Below are positions 2,333 through 63,144 of a stretch of DNA of 64,000 bases, piece by piece. Each line of letters starts with the position of its first letter. Within the stretch, counting starts at the first letter, position 1. Source of the stretch: Eledone cirrhosa (Eukaryota); assembly GCA_964016885.1 (NCBI GenBank), contig OZ024740.1, positions 348,998,001 through 349,062,000 of the forward strand, written 5' to 3'. Under the pieces are notes generated by a model that was not told where the DNA came from, ran no database searches, and saw only the letters and a list, made by a program, of their open reading frames with translations. The translations under genes and the position numbers were made by a program.

Positions 2333-2954
2333 AGGAAATTGTATATATATATACATATACACATATATGGATCGCTACTCATGCTTTAATAGAATTGTGA
2401 AATGGAGGGAAAGTATCCTGCATGTTTTATACATGTCTATTCAAATAAATTAGACAATAAAACATTTTAGCTTACTTTACATCAGGAAACCTAGAATGAT
2501 AGACAGAAATATGACATTAATTTCAAAACTCCAATATTAATACAGTTATAATATCTCTGAATGTCGCTAAATTTTAGTCACTACACACGATACGTCAACA
2601 AGTAGAACTGAATTGTTTACTGCGAACCTCCGCTTCTATATGTCGCCTCTAACACCTCCAATTGTATTATACTTCCCTTCCTTTCTCTTACTTTCTTTCT
2701 ATCTCGCCTGAAATAAATACACCGGCTAGTGTATTCTTTTACATCTTATCAGCAAAAAAGTATATTGTAAATTATATGACTGCTTTTAACCGCTCATTTA
2801 ATATATACAATAAACCCTTCACATAGTTTCTATTAGCTTCATATATATTTCTAGATAACTTTATTAATCTTACATTGTTTTTATCACGATGAATTACAGT
2901 CATGTTAAATGTAAGCTACCCCATTTGTCTAAAATATACTCTTCTTTCTTGTAG

Positions 2955-3482
2955 GTTCTTCTTCAGATTGTAATTGTGATGTTCAATTACATCTTCATCA
3001 TGTCTTCGTTACCAATCCACACCCAATGTGAAATACCCACTGATTTGAAAGTCCGCTACGAGAGTTTATCCAGTGCAGCCATTGGCAACAATTTCTTTCT
3101 ACCGGCTGAAATGGCTCCAGCAGAAAGTAATCATCCTATACTCACAGACGGAGATAAAACTTGTCCAACATCTGCTGTTTCCTCTGATATCATCAGTGAA
3201 CGTTCAACTTGCCCCTGGTACCTGAAGATTACCCATAATTCAACAGTCTTCCCTCCATCACGTACAGAAGTAGTGTGTCGTTGTACAGACTGTCTAGATT
3301 CTGACAACAATCACCAATGTGTGGCAGTGTATACTAAAATGACAGTCCTCAAACGTACAGATAAATGTGTTGATGGTCTGTATGTGTATAGTTCAAGTGT
3401 AATAGACGTGGCAACAGCCTGTGTTTGTGCACGGAAAGTTGATGTGATAACTGGGGGAAATGGAAACGATTATGTGTCGTAA
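2955..3482 (+). CDS. IL17: IL-17-like cytokine, coding exon 2 (copy A)
   Basis: Acceptor ttcttgtag ends at 2954. Hydrophobic signal segment VLLQIVIVMFNYIF, then ERSTCPW, CRC..C and VATACVC, matching the IL-17 cystine-knot motifs. Confidence 0.9.
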   Translation, partial: VLLQIVIVMFNYIFIMSSLPIHTQCEIPTDLKVRYESLSSAAIGNNFFLPAEMAPAESNHPILTDGDKTCPTSAVSSDIISERSTCPWYLKITHNSTVFPPSRTEVVCRCTDCLDSDNNHQCVAVYTKMTVLKRTDKCVDGLYVYSSSVIDVATACVCARKVDVITGGNGNDYVS

Positions 3483-11099: not shown

Positions 11100-11220
11100 C
11101 ATCTGACCCAGATTGTAATCCTTTTGTTTAACTACATTGTGACTTCGACGTCAATGCCGACTCCGCGGGAAATACCAACTGGCTTGAAACCTACTTTAGA
11201 GAATCTCACAGATGCAACTA
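11100..11220 (+). pseudogene. Truncated IL-17-like exon 2 relic (N-terminal part only)
   Basis: LTQIVILLFNYIVTS..PTPREIPTGLKPTLENLTDA aligns with LLQIVIVMFNYIFIMSS.P..QCEIPTDLKVRYESLSSA. Cut off by TE sequence at about 11221. Confidence 0.7.
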
Positions 11221-11224
11221 CTAG

Positions 11225-11540
11225 AAATGCCTCAATAGTATTAAGTGCTTTATTCAACAGTGCCATTCTAGTAACATACTTTTGTTGGGAGACTTTAATC
11301 TACCTTGTGTTGATTGGTCTACAAATAGTTTGAAACCAGGCATTCCCACCTCAACCACTGACAAAGAAGCAGTTGAGTCACTTCTCGACTTTATGAATGA
11401 GTTTTTCTTGTCCCAACTTCTCCTTGCACCAACAAGGTATCAGAAGAACATTTTGGACCTAGTGTTTAGTAACCACACTAACACTATACATAGTATTATA
11501 GTGGAAAAACCCTTCTTTCAGACCATGACATGATTCTTTG
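11225..11540 (+). mobile_element. CR1/L2-like LINE APE endonuclease fragment
   Basis: LGDFNLPCVDW and PTR..NILDLVFSN motifs. Confidence 0.8.
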
Positions 11541-22134: not shown

Positions 22135-22661
22135 CTTCTCGTACAGATCGTCGTTCTTTTCATCAATTATATCTTAATTGTGACTTCGGCTCCCGACCAG
22201 ATCCAATGTGAAATACTAACTGACCTAAAATACCAAAACGAGAGTTTGTACAGTGCAGCAACTTGCAATAACTTTTTTCTATCGGTTGAAATAGCTCCAG
22301 CAGTAAATAACCAAACACTCACAAACGGAAATAAAACTCGTCCAACATCCTCTGTTTCCTCTGATATCATCAGTGAACGTTCGCTTTGCCCTTGGTACCT
22401 GAAGATTACCCATAATTCAACAGTCTTCCCTCCATCACGTCCAGACTCTCTAGATGTCGCTGTCCAGACTCTCTATATTCTGACAGCAATCACCAATGTG
22501 TGACAGTATATTCTAAAATGACAGTCCTCAAACGTACAGATAAATGTGTTGATGGACTGTATGTGTATAGTCCAAGTGTAATATATGTGGCAACAGCCTG
22601 TCTTTGTGCACGGAAAGTTGATGTGATAACTAAAGGAAATCCACACGATTATGAGCAGTAA
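22135..22661 (+). pseudogene. IL-17-like pseudogene (copy B), frameshifted
   Basis: Acceptor gcag at 22134. +2 frameshift near 22441-22454 and two cysteines lost. C-terminus VATACLCARK is in another frame, ending TAA at 22661. Confidence 0.85.
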
Positions 22662-25975: not shown

Positions 25976-26503
25976 TTACGACACATAATCGTTTCCATTT
26001 CCCTCAGTTGTCACATCAACTTTCCGTGCACAAACACAGGCTGTTGCCACATCTATTACACTTGGACTATACACATACAGACCATCAACACATTTATCTG
26101 TACGTTTGAGGACTGTCATTTTAGTATACACTGCCACACATTGGTGATTGTTGTCAGAGCCTAGACAGTCTGTACAACGACACACTACTTCTGTACGTGA
26201 TGGAGGGAAGACTGTTGAATTATGGGTAATCTTCAGATACCAAGGGCAAGTTGAACGTTCACTGATGATATCAGAGGAAACAGCAGATGTTGGACAAGTT
26301 TTATCTCCCTCTCTGAGTATAGGATGATTACTTTCTGCTGGAGCCATTTCAGCCGGTAGAAAGAAATTGTTGCCAATGGCTGCACTGGATAAACTCTCGT
26401 AGCGGACTTTCAAATCAGTGGGTATTTCACATTGGGTGTGGATTGGTAACGAAGACATGATGAAGATGTAATTGAACATCACAATTACAATCTGAAGAAG
26501 AAC
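25976..26503 (-). CDS. IL17: IL-17-like cytokine, exon 2 (copy C)
   Basis: Intact ORF with the same motifs as copy A; acceptor AG at 26504-26505. Confidence 0.92.
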   Translation of the reverse strand, partial: VLLQIVIVMFNYIFIMSSLPIHTQCEIPTDLKVRYESLSSAAIGNNFFLPAEMAPAESNHPILREGDKTCPTSAVSSDIISERSTCPWYLKITHNSTVFPPSRTEVVCRCTDCLGSDNNHQCVAVYTKMTVLKRTDKCVDGLYVYSPSVIDVATACVCARKVDVTTEGNGNDYVS

Positions 26504-27045
26504 CTACAAGAAAGAAGAATATATTTTAGACAAATGGGGTAGCTTACATTTAACATGACTGTAATTCATCGTGATAAAAACAATGTAAGATTAATAAAGT
26601 TATCTAGAAATAGATATGAAGCTAATAGAAACTATGTGAAGGGTTTATTGTATATATTAAATGAGCGGTTAAAAGCAGTCATATTATTTACAATATACTT
26701 TTTTGCTGATAAGATGTAAAAGAATACACCAACCGGTGTATTTATTTCAGGCGAGATAGAAAGAAAGTAAGAGAAAGGAAGGGAAGTATAATACAATTGG
26801 AGGTGTTAGAGGCGACATATAGAAGCGGAAGTTCGCAAGTAAACAATTCAGTTCTACTTGTTGACGTATCGTGTGTAGTGACTAAAATTTAGCGACATTC
26901 AGAGATATTATAACTGTATTAATATTGGAGTTTTGAAATTAATGTCATATTTCTGTCTATCATTCTAGGTTTCCTGATGTAAAGTAAGCTGAAATGTTTT
27001 ATTGTCTAATTTATTTGAATAGACATGTAATTTATTTGAATAGAC

Positions 27046-27080
<35 letters not shown>

Positions 27081-27369
27081 TATATATATGGAGGAAATTG
27101 TAGTTTACTTGAAGCATTGCGTAGTTAGGTATAAACGTTTGAAGTTAGAAGGCCAGAACAATGGAGGCACGGATATAGAATATAAATACAAATGTAAAAG
27201 ATATTACTGACAATTAGTCTTTTACCTTAAATTTATTTGAATATCCTTAATTTTTGAGATCATATCTCTTCTTTGGAGGAAAGTAAAGGGGTTAATCCAC
27301 TGTTCTAATTAGCTTGCCAAGACTTGGCAATTTGTAATTTCTAATAAATATTTGCTGTACGGGTTGGGT

Positions 27370-27538
<169 letters not shown>

Positions 27539-27544
27539 AGATAG

Positions 27545-28070
27545 AATAAGGAAAAGCGAAGTAGTTTCAGATGTTCAAGTCCTTTAATAATAATGCTGTG
27601 ATATATATTTCAATGACGACACTGGCCACACTGTTCTGTGTGCGAGTGTCGTGACATCATCAGACAGCTTGTTACATTAGGTTATGTTTCCGAGGCAATC
27701 CAAATTGAATCGACATGGGAACGGATGAAGTGCGTGCTTTTGGGTTTTTCATCCGTTCCCCTGTGAGTACCAATTCACCCCCACCGATCTGCGCAGGCGC
27801 ATGTCCGAAGGAAGTTGACCATTAGCTACCGCAGATTTCAACGAAATTCGCTTAGTCAGTTCAGCCTCTCCGCCAAACGATGGCCCACCTATGCCGGTAC
27901 CATAGTTTACTGCTACCCATCCCGACTGTGGCAGTCAGCCGAAAGCCAGAGGGGATGGGAGAGTGTTAGTTTTTACAGGTCATAATACTACCTCTCACCA
28001 AGCGTTGACAGTACGACTGATCATCAACTCATAAGGGAAAATAAACTTAATTCTAGGTATCATGGTTTTA
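27545..28070 (-). mobile_element. Hammerhead-bearing non-coding element inside the copy C intron
   Basis: Homologous to 9080-9600; flanked by (TA)n on both sides. Confidence 0.7.
27595..27668 (-). ncRNA. Type I hammerhead ribozyme, intronic and sense to IL-17 copy C
   Basis: Minus strand GCTGT-CTGATGA, stem II (ACGACACT/AGTGTCGT; CACAC/GTGTG), GAAA-T-ATAT-A-TC, then ACAGC. Confidence 0.75.
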
Positions 28071-28136
28071 CATGGTTTTATATATATATATATATTATAT
28101 ATATATATATATGTGTATATAGATATATATTATATA

Positions 28137-28207
<71 letters not shown>

Positions 28208-28467
28208 AAAATATATATATAGTAAAAATATATGTGTAGACGAAAATCCGAAGTGGTCTCGATGAGGATTATGTATACATATATATATATAGAAGTGGTT
28301 CCTTAGCGGATCCTTAGCTCCGGATCCGCTAATGTGAAACAATTATTCTCGGTATGGTGAACTGTTGTGTAACCACTTCTACCTAACTCGTCCCATGGAC
28401 TGAGTGCTTACCACTACGGATATTACCTTCCAGTGTTCCACCACTATATATATATATATATATATAA

Positions 28468-28864
28468 ATGAGAACGTACATCACCTGAGAAGTTGAAGCA
28501 TTCAGATATTATTTGTAAAATTTCAGCGATCCTATTTATCCAATTCGAATTTACCAAGTCGTATAATGATGATAACTAAAGAAAGTACATTTAATTTTAC
28601 ATTTATCATGCTTTGCAGCATAGTGTTACGACCCTTTACGGTCTGGGTTCAAATCCCACTAAATTTGTTTGTCATCCTTACGGGGTTGATAAAATAAAAC
28701 ACCAGTAATGCACTGGAATAGTTGCTGGCCTGGTGCTAAAAGTAGAAGCAATTATATATTATTGTATGTACTAATGTTTAAAAAAATATTTCAGAATATC
28801 ACGTTAAGGGTGCTCAAACTTTAATCTGTATTTATAATAAATATTTGTTGTACGGGTTGGGTTT

Positions 28865-28870
<6 letters not shown>
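28468..28870 (+). repeat. Inverted duplicate of IL-17 exon 1 plus intron start (including a SINE)
   Basis: 28468-28596 is the reverse complement of about 29385-29512 with 2 mismatches. The remainder matches 62850-63120. Confidence 0.9.
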
Positions 28871-28904
<34 letters not shown>

Positions 28905-28990
28905 GTAGGTCCCGGGTTGAGTCGGGGATAACCACAGTAAGTAAGGTACTCAATACATGGCAGAGTAAAATTTTTTTATTTTATAGAAGG

Positions 28991-29041
28991 AGCTTCTACA
29001 GGACTAGTACTGTTTCATTCAGATGAAATCTTCAGGAAGCT
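28991..29041 (-). ncRNA. Type I hammerhead ribozyme, intronic and sense to IL-17 copy C
   Basis: Minus strand AGCTTC-CTGAAGA-TTTCATCTGAAT-GAA-ACAG-TACTAGTC-CTGT-A-GAAGCT; all three stems close. Confidence 0.85.
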
Positions 29042-29249
29042 GGGTGTCATATTAAGTTCTGGTATTTATACATTTAGGTAGTGGCAAGGGAGGGTGGTGG
29101 ATGGGGGGGTATTTAGATACACAGGACCACTACATGGCACAGGCCGTTTTTTCTATGGGGAGTGGTCAATTAGCCAGAGTGCTTTTTTGAAATAAATAAA
29201 TAAGTAAATAAATAAATAAATGAATAAATAAATAGATAAATGAATAAAT

Positions 29250-29280
<31 letters not shown>

Positions 29281-29399
29281 TAAATAAATAAAAACCCCAA
29301 GAATAGTAATTCAACAGATATATAGTAGGGAAATTTTTATATATATATATATATGAATTTTTATATATATATATATATATATAAATTAAATGTACTTAC

Positions 29400-29414
29400 T
29401 TTAGTTATCATCAT
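29400..29414 (-). CDS. IL17: IL-17 copy C exon 1 coding part (MMITK)
   Basis: ATGATGATAACTAAA|GTAAGT, phase 0, in frame with exon 2. Confidence 0.8.
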
Positions 29415-29534
29415 TATACGACTTGGTAAATTCGAATTGGATAAATAGGATCGCTGAAATTTTACAAATAATATCTGAATGATTCAACTTCTCAGGTGAT
29501 GTACGTTCTCATCAATGATATCTGCTGTCAAGTG

Positions 29535-29600
29535 TTCTTTTCTCATATGTTGTTTTAATTCCGGAAGGGAAATTTTGATATGACGTTACACATAGTGTAA
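29535..29600 (-). promoter_or_regulatory. IL-17 proximal promoter (copy C)
   Basis: TTCCGGAAGGGAAATTTT and TGACGTTA. The TATA position reads CATATGA here versus CATATAA in copy F. Confidence 0.6.
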
Positions 29601-30935
29601 TTTGGATGTTTTAAAAATTGAAATGCGGATATAACTTATAAATATATGCTGTGAGACTAAAACCCGTATTTTTTACCCACCTACCGGAATTATACGAAGT
29701 TTATATGAACTACATAGGAGGAGGTAAATTTCCTAGGGAATACAACTTATTTGAATTACGTCATCTGGTATCAAATAACCGCATGATTGACCCGATCAGG
29801 GAGTATCATGCATTTAGGCTCGCCCACGCAACATAATAAATATTTCTGTTGGTGGGACACCTGATTCTGTCAGCCCAGTCACACTGTCAGCTCAAACAGA
29901 AGTGCTATATCCGCCATAATTTCAACACATTAACACTCATATTTGCATGTCACACAAGTCAAAACATAAAACCAAATATCTATTGGCTTAAATTATATAC
30001 AAAAGAATGAACACACTTTGTTTCCTCTGGAAGAAAATGTATTAACATTTCCACCATGGAGTGACAAAGCCTTCAATGGTGCGAAAAGGTAATACATTTT
30101 AATAAAGGTAATACAAGCTGAGAAAGTGTGGCGCTATGAAACAAAATGACGATAGATACAAACATACATATATGTAAAAAGTAAACAGAAATAACAAAGC
30201 AAACGGCACAGTACAGTGAAGAAATATCTCAGTTTAACTCTTGAAATAACAGGAAAATGATCTTGATATTCCGGCCAATAGTCCTTCATTAGAAGATAGA
30301 ATGAGAAATAAAAGAGGAAATAGAAAGATATAAAGTGAGAAGAAGGAAATGCAGAATATTCGCAGATAAACAGCTAAGGTAAACAATGCTTAATCTAGTA
30401 CAAGAGAGATTAATTAGTATATATTAATATTTCATACACATAACATGCATGCGCGACATTAGATTTCGGTGTCCAATTATAACCATGACTGTATAGTGGA
30501 GGAGCCTTTCCAAATCTGACCTTATTCGCCAGGCATTAGGACAAAATTGAAAGACAAACCGTTACTTTACGAAATGTGGTCATATTTCCTGAAGAGTTCC
30601 CTCAAGAATAAAGTTGGGTAATTCTCAAAATAAATCTTAAATTATAATGGCTACATGCTTTGAAACGATGTCTATGTATATATAATATGTGCGTGACTTA
30701 AGCTGCAAGTTATTTTTAAAAGACACTAAAGGAGCTCGTTATAATACGGAAAATGTATATCATAAAGTATTTGTCCTTAAGAAAAACAAGAGAGATAATC
30801 CTCTCTGGGAAATATACATATGGAACATCTAAATATGTTGACAAACCTAAACATATATAAAACTATTATAGGAAATATTTTTATCCCCAAAGTTCAATAA
30901 TATGAATACATTTTGTGTTACACACAGTTAAAGAT

Positions 30936-31366
30936 TTATTGGTTCTTTTTGTGAGTCACATTCATTTTCATGTCTTTCAGTTATCACAATATTTCGTGCA
31001 CAAAAACAAACTATGGTTACATCTATCACAGACTATACACATACCATCCATCAACATATTTGTATGTTTGAGTACCGTCATGTTAGTAAATACACTTACA
31101 CATTGGTGGTGTAGACAGTCTTTAAAACGGCAATGTTACTGTACACAATGGAGGAAAGCCCGTTGATTCATGGTTAATATTAAGGTACCAAGGGCATGTT
31201 CAACGTTCACTGATGATATAAGAAGAAACAACAAATGCTGGGCAAGATTTATGCCAGTCTCTGGACAGTTCTCTTATTGTACTTTCAAATCAGTTGGTAT
31301 ATCACTTTGTCCCTGACTTGGTGCCAATGTCACAATCAAAATCAAGATCAAAATCTGTATGAAAAC
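30936..31366 (-). pseudogene. Degenerate IL-17-like pseudogene (copy D)
   Basis: VFIQILILILIVTLAP..DIPTDLKVQ* then KSCP..IISER*TCPWYL. Contains stops, a deletion and frameshifts. Confidence 0.85.
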
Positions 31367-35635: not shown

Positions 35636-36957
35636 CTAGCAGTAAAGCCCGGCGTTGCTCGGGGTCGCTCAGTAGCTGTGTTAAAGTTACAATGTTAAGT
35701 TTCTTTTTTGGCTTAAAGTCTGTCTGCACGACTGTCTGTCTGCACGCCTAACGAAATTTACAGATACATATATTTTAAATAAACTTATATAATTTTTTCT
35801 TTTTTTTTACGAAATATTTGCTTGTTTTACGTAGTCTTTAAATAAACTTGTTTTCAAGTAAAAATATTGTTTTAAAAGGCTTTTAAATGGAAATGAAGCA
35901 AAACGGAAGCTTAGTGTTCGAACTGATGAATTTTGCAGGTCAAAATTTTGCTGGCTCGACAACTGTTCGTGTATTGTGTTAATGTCATTTTAAACGCTGA
36001 GAAAGCCAGCATAATTTTTTTAATTTTTGCACGCAGAAAATGTAAACAGAACAAAGGGAAATAACTCGTCACTTGCGCTCAAAAATCGATACATTAGATT
36101 CGATTTCGTCAAATAGGGTGGGTCAATTTGAAATATTTTTTTCCGATGTCTTCGCTAGGGCTCAATGTACAAGTATAACAATTTCGGTGCAATTCCGTCA
36201 GAGATTCTAAGAGGAGATGTGTGCCAAAAATCGATAGACAGACAGACAACCACAGCTTTATATATATAGATAGATGACATAATCAAAAACAAGAACTTAT
36301 TTGAAAATTTATTTCACCGATGGTTCCGCCGGACCTTCATCTATAAGTGTAGCAATTTCACCGAAATTTGAACGTACGGTTTAAGAGGAGATGTGTGCCG
36401 AATGTTTTAGTAGACAGACAGACAACCTCAGTTTTATATATATAGATGACATAATCAAAAACAAGAACTTATTTGAAAATTTATTTGACCGATGGTTCCG
36501 CCGGACCTTCATCTATAAGTGTAGCAATTTCACCGAAATTTGAACGTATGGTTTAAGAGGAGATGTGTGCCGAAGGTTTTAGTAGACAGACAACCTCAGT
36601 TTTATATATATAGATGACATAATCAAAAACAAGAACTTATTTGAAAATTTATTTGACCGATGGTTCCGCCGGCCTTCATCTATAAGTGTAGCAATTTCAC
36701 CGAAATTTGAACGTACGGTTTAAGAGGAGATGTGTGCCGAAGGTTTTAGTAGACAGACAGACAACCTCAGTTTTATATATATAGATGACATAATCAAAAA
36801 CAAGAACTTATTTGAAAATTTATTTGACCGATGGTTCCGCCGGACCTTCATCTATAAGTGTAGCAATTTCACCGAAATTTGAACGTAAGGTTTAAGAGGA
36901 GATGTGTGCCGAAGGTTTTAGTAGACAGAAAGACAACCTCAGTTTTATATATATAGA
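35636..36957 (-). mobile_element. Non-autonomous Helitron-like element with tandemly amplified 5' end
   Basis: A|CTAG end with hairpin CCCGGCG..CTCGGG; TCTATATATATAAAA start; (CTGT)n. Related elements at about 40504-41465, 48275-49184 and 52117-52810. Confidence 0.7.
36270..36957. repeat. Tandem repeat, about 171-bp unit x4
   Basis: GACATAATCAAAAACAAG recurs at about 36276, 36448, 36616 and 36787. Confidence 0.95.
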
Positions 36958-38187
36958 TTAAAAACAGAGTTTATTTAATAATACATATATTTGTATGTGT
37001 ATTGTATTTCTATGCTACACGTATCTCTTATTGGTTATATACATATATGTGTGTGGTAGTTCACTGTCATATATTAGGTGTTATACTCCGACATCGACAG
37101 TAAACATATGCATGTATTCATTTAGTTGTGGGCAGCAGTGAACAACAAAATAATCGAATATAATAATTGAAAATAAAATACAAACAAAAAAAGAAGCAAA
37201 ATGTTACAAACAAGGTAAAATATAAAATGTAATCCCAAAATATTTCTAAATAAAAAGCGGAGCGCTGAACCATTCCATGATAATTCCCAGAGAAGTAGGA
37301 AGATAGCCATTATGCTAGCGTAACCTAGAAGTATAGGTAGATAGCTATTAAGCCAACGTAAAAAAGTATCAATATTTCAAATATTCTAAGGAAAAGGTAG
37401 AAACAAATCTTAATGCAGAACCATCACATAGACACAATTAATTATAAAGGTAAAAAATATTTTAAAAAAAAGGTTAATAAGAAGGTAATCTGTAGAATGA
37501 GATAACTGACTGCATCCTTTCTGACTAATATATTGACGTGTTATAAACATACCTACAACAGTACTTTAAATTGCTGTCAGCAAGATAATTTCTAACATGC
37601 CTAGCCAGAATTAGTAGCAAATACACGGATGCACTCCAATTATGGTTTTAATATGACTGGAACGAAAATCTTAGTTCTGTAATTTGACATGAGATATGTT
37701 GAAATATATTGTGCTGTTGCTCTTTATTGTCTTGTATAACATTTGGAGGGCTGTTGTGTTAACCTGTGCTCAAATGGCGTTTTAGTAGACCTACGAATAA
37801 CAACATTCCAGCAATGTACGTGATGCTGTTTTTTTAAATATAGTGAGACTCATACTATATAATATCTACTTAAAATACAGGATAACCATCTCTTTAAAAT
37901 ACAGCATAGCAAGGAATATTGATACAGCATCCTCATGGCATTTACTCGTAAAATAATATGGATCGACAAAAGATTCGTCAAGCAACCAGATGGAATAAGT
38001 AAATTGACCTTCTGATTGGAAAATGTTAAAAACTATATGATTATATGACAAGATATGAATGAAAGTTAATACAAGAAGTATACAAATCTGCTATTTATGA
38101 ATGCTAAGAATGCAACAGAATGTGAGTCTGTGTGTGTCGATTTTGTGTGAATGGGATTGAGAAATTAACATTTTGATAGTTTAAAGA

Positions 38188-60948: not shown

Positions 60949-62186
60949 CTACAAGAAAGAAGAATATATTTTAGACAAATGGGGTAGCTTACATTTAACA
61001 TGACTGTAATTCATCGTGATAAAAACAATGTAAGATTAATAAAGTTATCTAGAAATAGATATGAAGCTAATAGAAACTATGTGAAGGGTTTATTGTATAT
61101 ATTAAATGAGCGGTTAAAAGCAGTCATATTATTTACAATATACTTTTTTGCTAAGATGTAAAAGAATACACTAGCCGGTGTATTTATTTCAGGCGAGATA
61201 GAAAGAAAGTAAGAGAAAAGGAAGGGAAGTATAATACAATTGGAGGTGTTAGAGGCGACATATAGAAGCGGAAGTTCGCAAGTAAACAATTCAGTTCTAC
61301 TTGTTGACGTATCGTGTGTAGTGACTAAAATTTAGCGACATTCAGAGATATTATAACTGTATTAATATTGGAGTTTTGAAATTAATGTCATATTTCTGTC
61401 TATCATTCTAGGTTTCCTGATGTAAAGTAAGCTAAAATGTTTTATTGTGTAAATTATTTGAATAGACATGTATAAAACATGCAGGATACTTTCCCTCCAT
61501 TTCACAATTCTATTAAATTATGAGTAGCGATCATTCTGTCTACAATTTGACTGGATATGATTATGTTATGTTATTTGTGAAACTATCGCACCATACGTAT
61601 AAAATAAAAGTAAATATAAAAATATATATTGCATATGTTTCTTCCTACCATAATTTGAAAAGAATACAACATAAAATACACACATAAAATTTAATATAAT
61701 ATCTACAAACATAAATGCAACAACACAGTGTGTTGAAATAAATTTGTGTTGATTTTTCTATATATATCGAAAAACAAAAACAGTTAAATCATGTACTAAG
61801 TATATAAGTAGAGAAGAAGCATATTAATTTTATAGAAAGATCACTTCAATGGGGCTAGAACTGCTTCATTCATATGAAATCATCAGGAATGTCCTGATCT
61901 TTTCATACGAATGCAACAGTTCGAAACCTATAGGAGTATTTTTTATAAACATATTATATATATACATATTCTAAGGACATGATTTATGATATATTGCTCT
62001 GATTATTTAATTTATTAATTCTTCATAGAGCTACAACGTGACCGGTTGCAACATATATATCTATGACTTTATGTTTATGTATATGTAAACCTTTATATTT
62101 AATAATCTCCCGTCACGATTCTTATCCATTTTTTAATCTATTTTTGGCGCGATCACTTTGGAAAACTAAATGTCTAATTTTGAGTT

Positions 62187-62710: not shown

Positions 62711-63144
62711 CAGTGTGTGCATGTTTGTGATTTTTTGCATCTATATAAATATATATATATGTGTGTGCATATATATATATATATATATATAATAAAAATA
62801 TATGTGAAGACTAAAATCTGAGGATTATATATATAAATATATATGTATATAAACCCGTAGAGTAAATATTTATTATAAGCACAGATTAAAGTTTAAGCAA
62901 AGAATAACTGCTTTCACCCTAAACGTCATCTTCTGACATATATATAAACATTAGTACATACAATAATATATAATTGCTTCTACTTTTAGCACCAGGCCAG
63001 CAACTATTCCAGTGCATTACTGGTGTTTTATTTTATCAACCCCGTAAGGATGACAAAGAAACTTAGTGGGATTTGAACCCAGATCATAAAGGGCCGTAAC
63101 ACTATGCTGCAAAGCATGACGTAATATAAATTAAATGTACTTAC

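Follow-up and report, generated by a model that had tools for sequence, protein, structure and literature searches.

The window analysed here, i.e. a stretch of 64 000 nt of the Eledone cirrhosa genome (3.0 Gb), lies in a tandem cluster of IL-17 genes. Positions are given relative to the window unless stated otherwise. Paralogous IL-17 exons were found in number across 264 kb using tblastn, and at least 34 exon-1-like places were located in the cluster (G000 C1:348.79-349.39 Mb), i.e. well past the window. The cluster is built of repeated units of about 30-40 kb showing 98-99% identity. Tandem IL-17 expansions have been reported in marine invertebrates, including Octopus bimaculoides (PMC8353272). 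Five genes, named B to F, are of type 1 and have an exon 1 with 99% identity. Paralogs C to F are situated at 63, 102, 140 and 170 kb, and gene B hosts an inverted copy of this exon. Exon 2 of gene B encodes an IL17 domain (PF06083, E 2.7e-13, 50.6 bits vs a cut-off of 24 in Pfam) and exon 1 is in phase with it. A TATA-like box at -31/-33 and a TCATT initiator are common to three paralog subfamilies. The features of gene B are as follows.

25976..26503, - strand: exon 2, an uninterrupted frame of 175 codons and a stop, with the AG acceptor intact.
29400..29516, - strand: predicted exon 1, with its start at about 29516, the ATG at 29414 and the GT donor at 29399.
29540..29547, - strand: TATA-like box, with TATA changed to TATG at 29544 in gene B alone (1/5 type-1 copies).
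29753..29758, - strand: junction of an upstream deletion of about 600 bp, as compared with paralogs C, D and E, which keep the sequence.

Gene A, in the same window, has an intact exon 2 (2955-3482, + strand) and no type-1 exon 1 in positions 1-2954. Its homology with paralog C ends at 133 and restarts at 2370, with repeat sequence in between. This repeat contains an ORF (586-1125) that by eye resembles a GIY-YIG nuclease and gave no Pfam match. Exon 1 of gene A was lost at a repeat insertion similar to that of gene B. Broken copies of IL-17 exon 2 were also seen at 22135-22652 (+ strand), 30961-31321 (- strand) and 11103-11228 (+ strand), as frameshifted, stop-containing or fragmentary sequence, and a tandem array of a 172-bp unit (about 4.4 units) occupies 36126-36958.

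The inverted repeat lies in the first part of the predicted gene B transcription unit and is made up of the following elements.

29383..29512, - strand: sense arm, delimited by blastn and arm alignment.
28468..28597, + strand: antisense arm, in which exon 1 is copied starting at +5 and including the donor.
28598..28863, + strand: rest of the inverted block, corresponding to the beginning of the intron in the paralogs (89% with C-F, 438 columns).
28607-28760, within the + strand block: SINE-like repeat, of which repeat copies were found.
About 28783-28860, within the + strand block: 5' half of an older Penelope-like end, also with repeat copies.
28228..28272, - strand: 3' half of this older Penelope-like end, in its ancestral orientation.
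28446..28466: (TA)n run at the distal border of the copy.
28864..28903: (TA)n run at the other border of the copy.
29338..29383: (TA)n run beside the real donor, joined via ATAT; the paralogs go into the SINE here.
28292..28445, + strand: second TA-flanked repeat end, with an inverted 5' part and a degenerate hammerhead (807 candidates).

Aligned with each other, the arms are identical at 128 of 130 positions without any gap, the mismatches being at 28498/29482 and 28582/29398. The match detected by blastn is longer (140 columns, 96.4%, E 1e-60). The reverse complementarity of about 98% between 28468-28596 and about 29385-29512, noted in the first-pass annotation, thus holds. So does the coverage of the predicted 5'UTR, the ATG (29414) and the GT donor (G at 29399) by the sense arm. 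The antisense arm has a private change of the donor from GT to GA, and the mutated donor (GAAAGT) described earlier was confirmed in the assembly sequence. Since it is antisense there, this mutated donor was ruled out as relevant to gene B.

The duplicate is not limited to the 128 bp or so first described: it runs to 28887 and measures 420 nt. These 420 nt are the inverted homologue of exon 1 and of the intron start of paralogs C-F (438 columns, 89%). Sequence 28168-28291 matches 62739-62847 on the same strand, and members of the older Penelope-like family run on into sequence of the 28228..28272 type after an internal (TA)n. The forward intron start is missing behind the real exon 1 of gene B, where ATAT joins the (TA)n and a young repeat. 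Along the transcript strand, the order in paralogs C-F is exon 1, intron start, (TA)n and rest of the intron. In gene B, exon 1 is followed by a (TA)n run, the young repeat and another (TA)n run, then by the intron start and exon 1 in inverted form, a third (TA)n run, a repeat and the rest of the intron. As assembled, the structure is a small inversion in situ in which one breakpoint has been duplicated, with (TA)n runs and two Penelope-like inserts at its borders; an inverted segment and its duplicated breakpoint are both present, and paralogs C-F supply the ancestral state. One arm mismatch (28498) agrees with paralogs C and F, not with B. In the middle of the same intron, 27030-28168 is unmatched to about 1.2 kb of paralog C and carries other repeats between (TA)n runs; it is a further replacement event in gene B.

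No read contig spanning any (TA)n border was found, and orientation and adjacency are those of the assembly alone. An assembly artefact at these borders is considered very improbable. A 142-nt read contig fits the diverged part of the block (28702-28843) with 0 differences, in a run that may come from the assembled sample. This part has no second copy in the assembly (the runner-up reaches 78% across it). The arms can be told apart at 2 sites, and the loop does not form a palindrome. The antisense exon arm is nearly devoid of read-contig cover, the contigs having been laid on the sense arm.

A loop of about 790 nt containing a hammerhead had been described between the arms. The hammerhead motif is present, and the loop itself is mostly repeat sequence, with the following features.

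28905..29336, - strand: young, 5'-truncated, non-coding, hammerhead-bearing repeat of Penelope-like or retrozyme-like type.
28991..29041, - strand (transcript strand): type I hammerhead motif, with a predicted cut between 28997 and 28996.
28975..28980, - strand: AATAAA, a putative signal located between the predicted cut (17 nt away) and the antisense arm.

The loop repeat has 1516 candidates genome-wide, with 40 scored matches at 95-100%. Its copies are TA-flanked and have inverted ends in 7 cases out of 30; private changes numbered 0 in 285 columns. Judged by these copies, it is very young and high-copy, which points to the ribozyme as a passenger of a recent insertion. The motif scan returned 2 hits in the 64-kb window (mean of 0.1 in 20 shuffles), and the core is preserved in 30/30 genomic copies of the element. 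A type I core was found with a stem I of 6 bp (open), a stem III of 4 bp and a GUA triplet. Stem II is weak (3 bp, closed by U-U, not G-C) and the catalytic fold is predicted to lie 3.1 kcal/mol above the minimum free energy (MFE). No Rfam hammerhead match was obtained at the gathering score or at E<=10, just chance (TA)n matches being returned. Cleavage by a Penelope hammerhead is reported to have required protein (PMC11167929).

Hammerhead ends, 5' truncation, inverted 5' parts and microsatellite targets are described for Penelope-like elements (PMC8557442). The loop repeat has a hammerhead end, a 5' truncation, an inverted 5' copy and a microsatellite target; no RT or GIY-YIG ORF was seen for the family among the ORFs listed in 1.5-kb flanks. 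Relatives of the 28292..28445 repeat retain an intact hammerhead core. A template jump from the copy into this repeat was considered and rejected, as the repeat has two ends arranged like those of an independent insertion. In (TA)n runs, at least five different families with hammerheads were observed (loci L031-L094, window 1997 and 61824-61889). Such families were missed by Rfam in this window, and one of them apparently has CAGAAGA in place of the CUGANGA core.

The inverted exon 1 is present in one of the five near-identical type-1 paralogs, and an antisense twin within 1.5 kb was found at 1 of 34 exon-1-like places. Private changes amount to 1/128 in the exon part of the arm and to 5/166 in the SINE part (paralog F has 6; C, D and E have 0). 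These low counts fit a recent neutral age. The distal 76 columns of the block contain 11 private changes. The distal end of the duplicate (28823-28865) shares variants with a copy of the same family located 1.5 kb away (27329-27372), and local conversion may explain the 11 clustered changes. Arm-to-arm conversion or selection is unnecessary to account for the high identity, as the excess divergence is clustered (13-column junction and distal 76 columns) and the SINE part does not exceed paralog F. No compensatory change between the arms was found, and comparison with the paralogs gave no sign of selection or of excess conservation of the arm. The inverted repeat is likely a recent by-product in a damaged or decaying paralog. 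Against decay, exon 2 of gene B is open, its two private changes (codons 64 and 89) comprise one synonymous and one replacement, and the splice sites are intact; decay is not proven.

Inverted repeats (>=120 bp, >=93% identity, spacer <=1.5 kb) were found in 6 out of 60 stretches of 10 kb taken at even intervals in the genome. As they are common, duplex potential by itself is not special; coverage of a host exon is the unusual aspect of the gene B repeat. Runs of (TA)6 or more numbered 869 in 600 kb. The filter retained 11 inverted pairs from the 58 repeat-centred loci; most of their arms were repeats, and the two apparently unique arms (loci L058 and L068) were checked against the genome. L058 was discarded as a second case of host DNA, its arm being a high-copy repeat (1952 candidates). 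L068 has a 113-nt segment with exactly two genome matches, inverted and 1.7 kb apart, one of them TA-flanked on both sides.

1118-1230 of locus L068 (G000 C6:3853047): first copy of the host segment.
2918-3031 of locus L068 (G000 C6:3854847): second copy of the host segment, inverted relative to the first.

The TA-flanked inverted pattern was thus seen in 0/60 systematic 10-kb stretches and 1/58 repeat-centred loci. The presence of the same architecture on another contig indicates that the process recurs.

Taken together, it is rather probable that the locus carries a real, recent rearrangement confined to one of five near-identical IL-17 genes, likely via a (TA)n break from which copy-back was primed across the intron start and through exon 1, and likely harmful or neutral to a damaged copy rather than a selected switch. 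The DNA fold-back origin, considered separately, is held at a little under an even chance. A break would first occur in the self-complementary intronic (TA)n. Fold-back or template-switch synthesis would then proceed over about 400 nt and return to (TA)n. The forward intron start would be lost by ATAT microhomology, which would relieve the long palindrome and leave the 130-bp arms. The hammerhead-bearing Penelope-like ends would have been inserted independently into the TA runs. TA repeats are reported to be break sites repaired by microhomology joining (PMC13645644), and fold-back inverted templated insertions arise at breaks (PMC11724301). On the distal side, the break falls within the internal (TA)n of the older element, whose other half stayed in place; this points to an origin in cis. 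Reverse transcription from the own 3' end of this element was rejected, the break being at its internal (TA)n. Against fold-back, the copied length of about 400 nt far exceeds that of the yeast cases (mostly 5-34 bp; PMC11724301) and the first base of the copy is 4 nt downstream of the predicted start, which a DNA template would not require. The arm mismatch at 28498 matches paralogs C and F, so that a later gene conversion is needed. The 11 private changes of the distal 76 columns are unaccounted for by the model, and the TA-flanked pattern is not common.

The position of the end of the copy could also reflect an RNA template. The broken (TA)n end would have been extended on the unspliced transcript of gene B up to its capped end, by a Penelope-like RT or a repair polymerase. 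This possibility is doubtful; it bears on the origin alone and leaves room for a neutral outcome. In its favour, the copy has its first base at +5 relative to the start predicted from the TATA/initiator pair conserved in three subfamilies, it keeps intron sequence and it is TA-flanked like the Penelope-like inserts nearby. The Penelope RT is reported to nick AT-rich DNA and to start inside its template (PMC11167929), and intron-containing host genes moved by Penelope elements have been described (PMC3846280). In these published cases, unlike in gene B, pLTRs frame the moved gene and target duplications are present (PMC3846280). In addition, the copy has its 3' end at a (TA)n inside the older element rather than at that element's terminus, the start site is predicted rather than mapped, and L068 is a similar event without a known link to a start site. 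Gene B is a single case in which the start-site coincidence was noticed post hoc. The hallmarks of a retrocopy are not apparent: the intron is kept, poly(A) is absent and the flanking (TA)n hides any target duplication. A literature search at the level of listings and abstracts retrieved no description of a transcript that had been written into an intron of its own gene.

Staggered breaks would give the observed layout in one event, with no separate deletion needed. In such a one-step inversion, nicks at +5 and about +135 would be combined with one break in (TA)n, and the far end would gain the staggered duplicate. Duplications of this type are reported to flank 17/29 Drosophila inversions (PMC1885836). 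This origin is unlikely, since it requires (TA)n on both sides and the ATAT join on the donor side, both of which microhomology models give directly, and since L068 retains the forward copy, i.e. corresponds to an insertion and not to an inversion.

The consequences of the arms for the RNA were evaluated by folding. For a 1057-nt RNA, the MFE was -350.8 kcal/mol, and the arm-arm duplex was estimated at -204 kcal/mol. The pre-mRNA duplex over exon 1 proposed in the first-pass annotation is predicted in this fold, and the ribozyme is indeed located on the pre-mRNA strand between the arms. The donor is predicted to be paired even without the antisense arm, and the accessibility calculation is not discriminating for masking. 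Should gene B be transcribed, synthesis would be about 800 nt past the donor, with the acceptor still about 2 kb away, when the duplex forms over the donor. Splicing would then be lowered in cis, except where commitment by U1 comes earlier or where cleavage or termination of the RNA takes place within the loop. The unspliced frame of gene B stops after 17 codons. Cryptic GT donors are present just below the arm (28428 and 28412), making a hairpin-bearing spliced RNA possible. Ribozyme cutting in the loop had been proposed as part of the device; the predicted cut and the AATAAA both precede the antisense arm and would oppose an intact hairpin instead. Introns cut by a slow hammerhead are reported still to splice and a fast ribozyme to block splicing (PMC2995048, citing two studies). 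Long repeat-derived duplexes are described as general ADAR targets in animals (PMC9989829). Xenopus introns are reported to be depleted in retrozymes, which the authors read as selection against insertions (bioRxiv 10.64898/2026.07.22.740005).

Structurally, the locus has a long inverted repeat in one predicted transcription unit, with homology to other genes, as a hairpin locus does. A functional hairpin would imply that gene B is transcribed and that the duplex, besides masking the donor, undergoes editing or dicing, the siRNAs damping the type-1 IL-17 paralogs. We regard this as quite unlikely. Of the 114 21-mers of the arm, 51-93 are perfect to exon 1 of C-F and 0 to the 13 other exon-1 matches; siRNAs, if made, could therefore hit type-1 paralogs only. 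The cryptic donors would allow the hairpin to be kept in a spliced RNA, and young Drosophila hairpin RNAs are reported to originate beside their target genes (PMC10317233). On the other side, this is a single recent copy with no compensatory change and a damaged promoter, the RNA would tend to be severed or terminated ahead of the antisense arm by the hammerhead and the AATAAA in the loop, and equally good inverted repeats occur in 6/60 ordinary 10-kb stretches. The working regulatory device suggested earlier is thus not supported so far, being present in 1/5 paralogs, with promoter damage and with a ribozyme that belongs to a young repeat. Gene B may hold a dormant or weak hairpin silencer. 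A combined scenario is highly improbable: the gene's own unspliced transcript would have been reverse-transcribed into the intron at a TA repeat, as a one-step source of a hairpin silencing the four closest siblings, and the loop hammerhead would tune the amount of surviving hairpin.

If the rearrangement by (TA)n break and copy-back is neutral, it shows TA microsatellites and Penelope-like inserts damaging members of an expanding IL-17 cluster. It would also point to a recurring type of mutation in a genome very rich in TA, namely the flipping of host DNA between two TA runs. If the copy is RNA-derived, a pre-mRNA has been written back into its own gene. If siRNAs are made, the locus is a newborn hairpin allele able to damp one immune-cytokine subfamily and a test case for endogenous RNAi in molluscs.

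Compared with known systems, the gene B cluster resembles the IL-17 expansions of marine invertebrates in its clustered, tandem genes; hairpin alleles and intronic ribozymes are not mentioned for these expansions in the consulted passages of that report (PMC8353272). Like Penelope-like elements and non-LTR retrozymes, the loop repeat has a hammerhead near its end, 5' truncation, inverted 5' parts and insertion in (TA)n (PMC8557442, PMC11167929, bioRxiv 10.64898/2026.07.22.740005). It differs from these systems in having no linked RT or GIY-YIG ORF among the ORFs listed and no Rfam match, and in not forming a tandem array. The arm is comparable to Drosophila hairpin RNAs of the hp58 type, i.e. 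a young inverted exon fragment near homologous genes from which antisense siRNAs would be possible in principle. Unlike hp58, it has a ribozyme-holding loop of about 790 nt and arms over its own first exon and donor, and the hairpin is a predicted one (PMC10317233). With fold-back insertions (PMC11724301) and microhomology repair at TA repeats (PMC13645644), the copy shares a local inverted copy, microhomology junctions and a TA-rich break. Unlike fold-back insertions, it measures about 400 nt instead of 5-34 bp, belongs to a germ-line animal genome and ends at a predicted transcription start. As in staggered-break inversions, a segment is inverted and a non-repetitive flank is duplicated in inverted orientation at one breakpoint; gene B differs from these in its size of only about 270 bp, its location inside one intron and its (TA)n and repeat-insert borders (PMC1885836). 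The gene B structure is most likely a variant of known breakpoint duplications, the start-site coincidence being its one unexplained feature.
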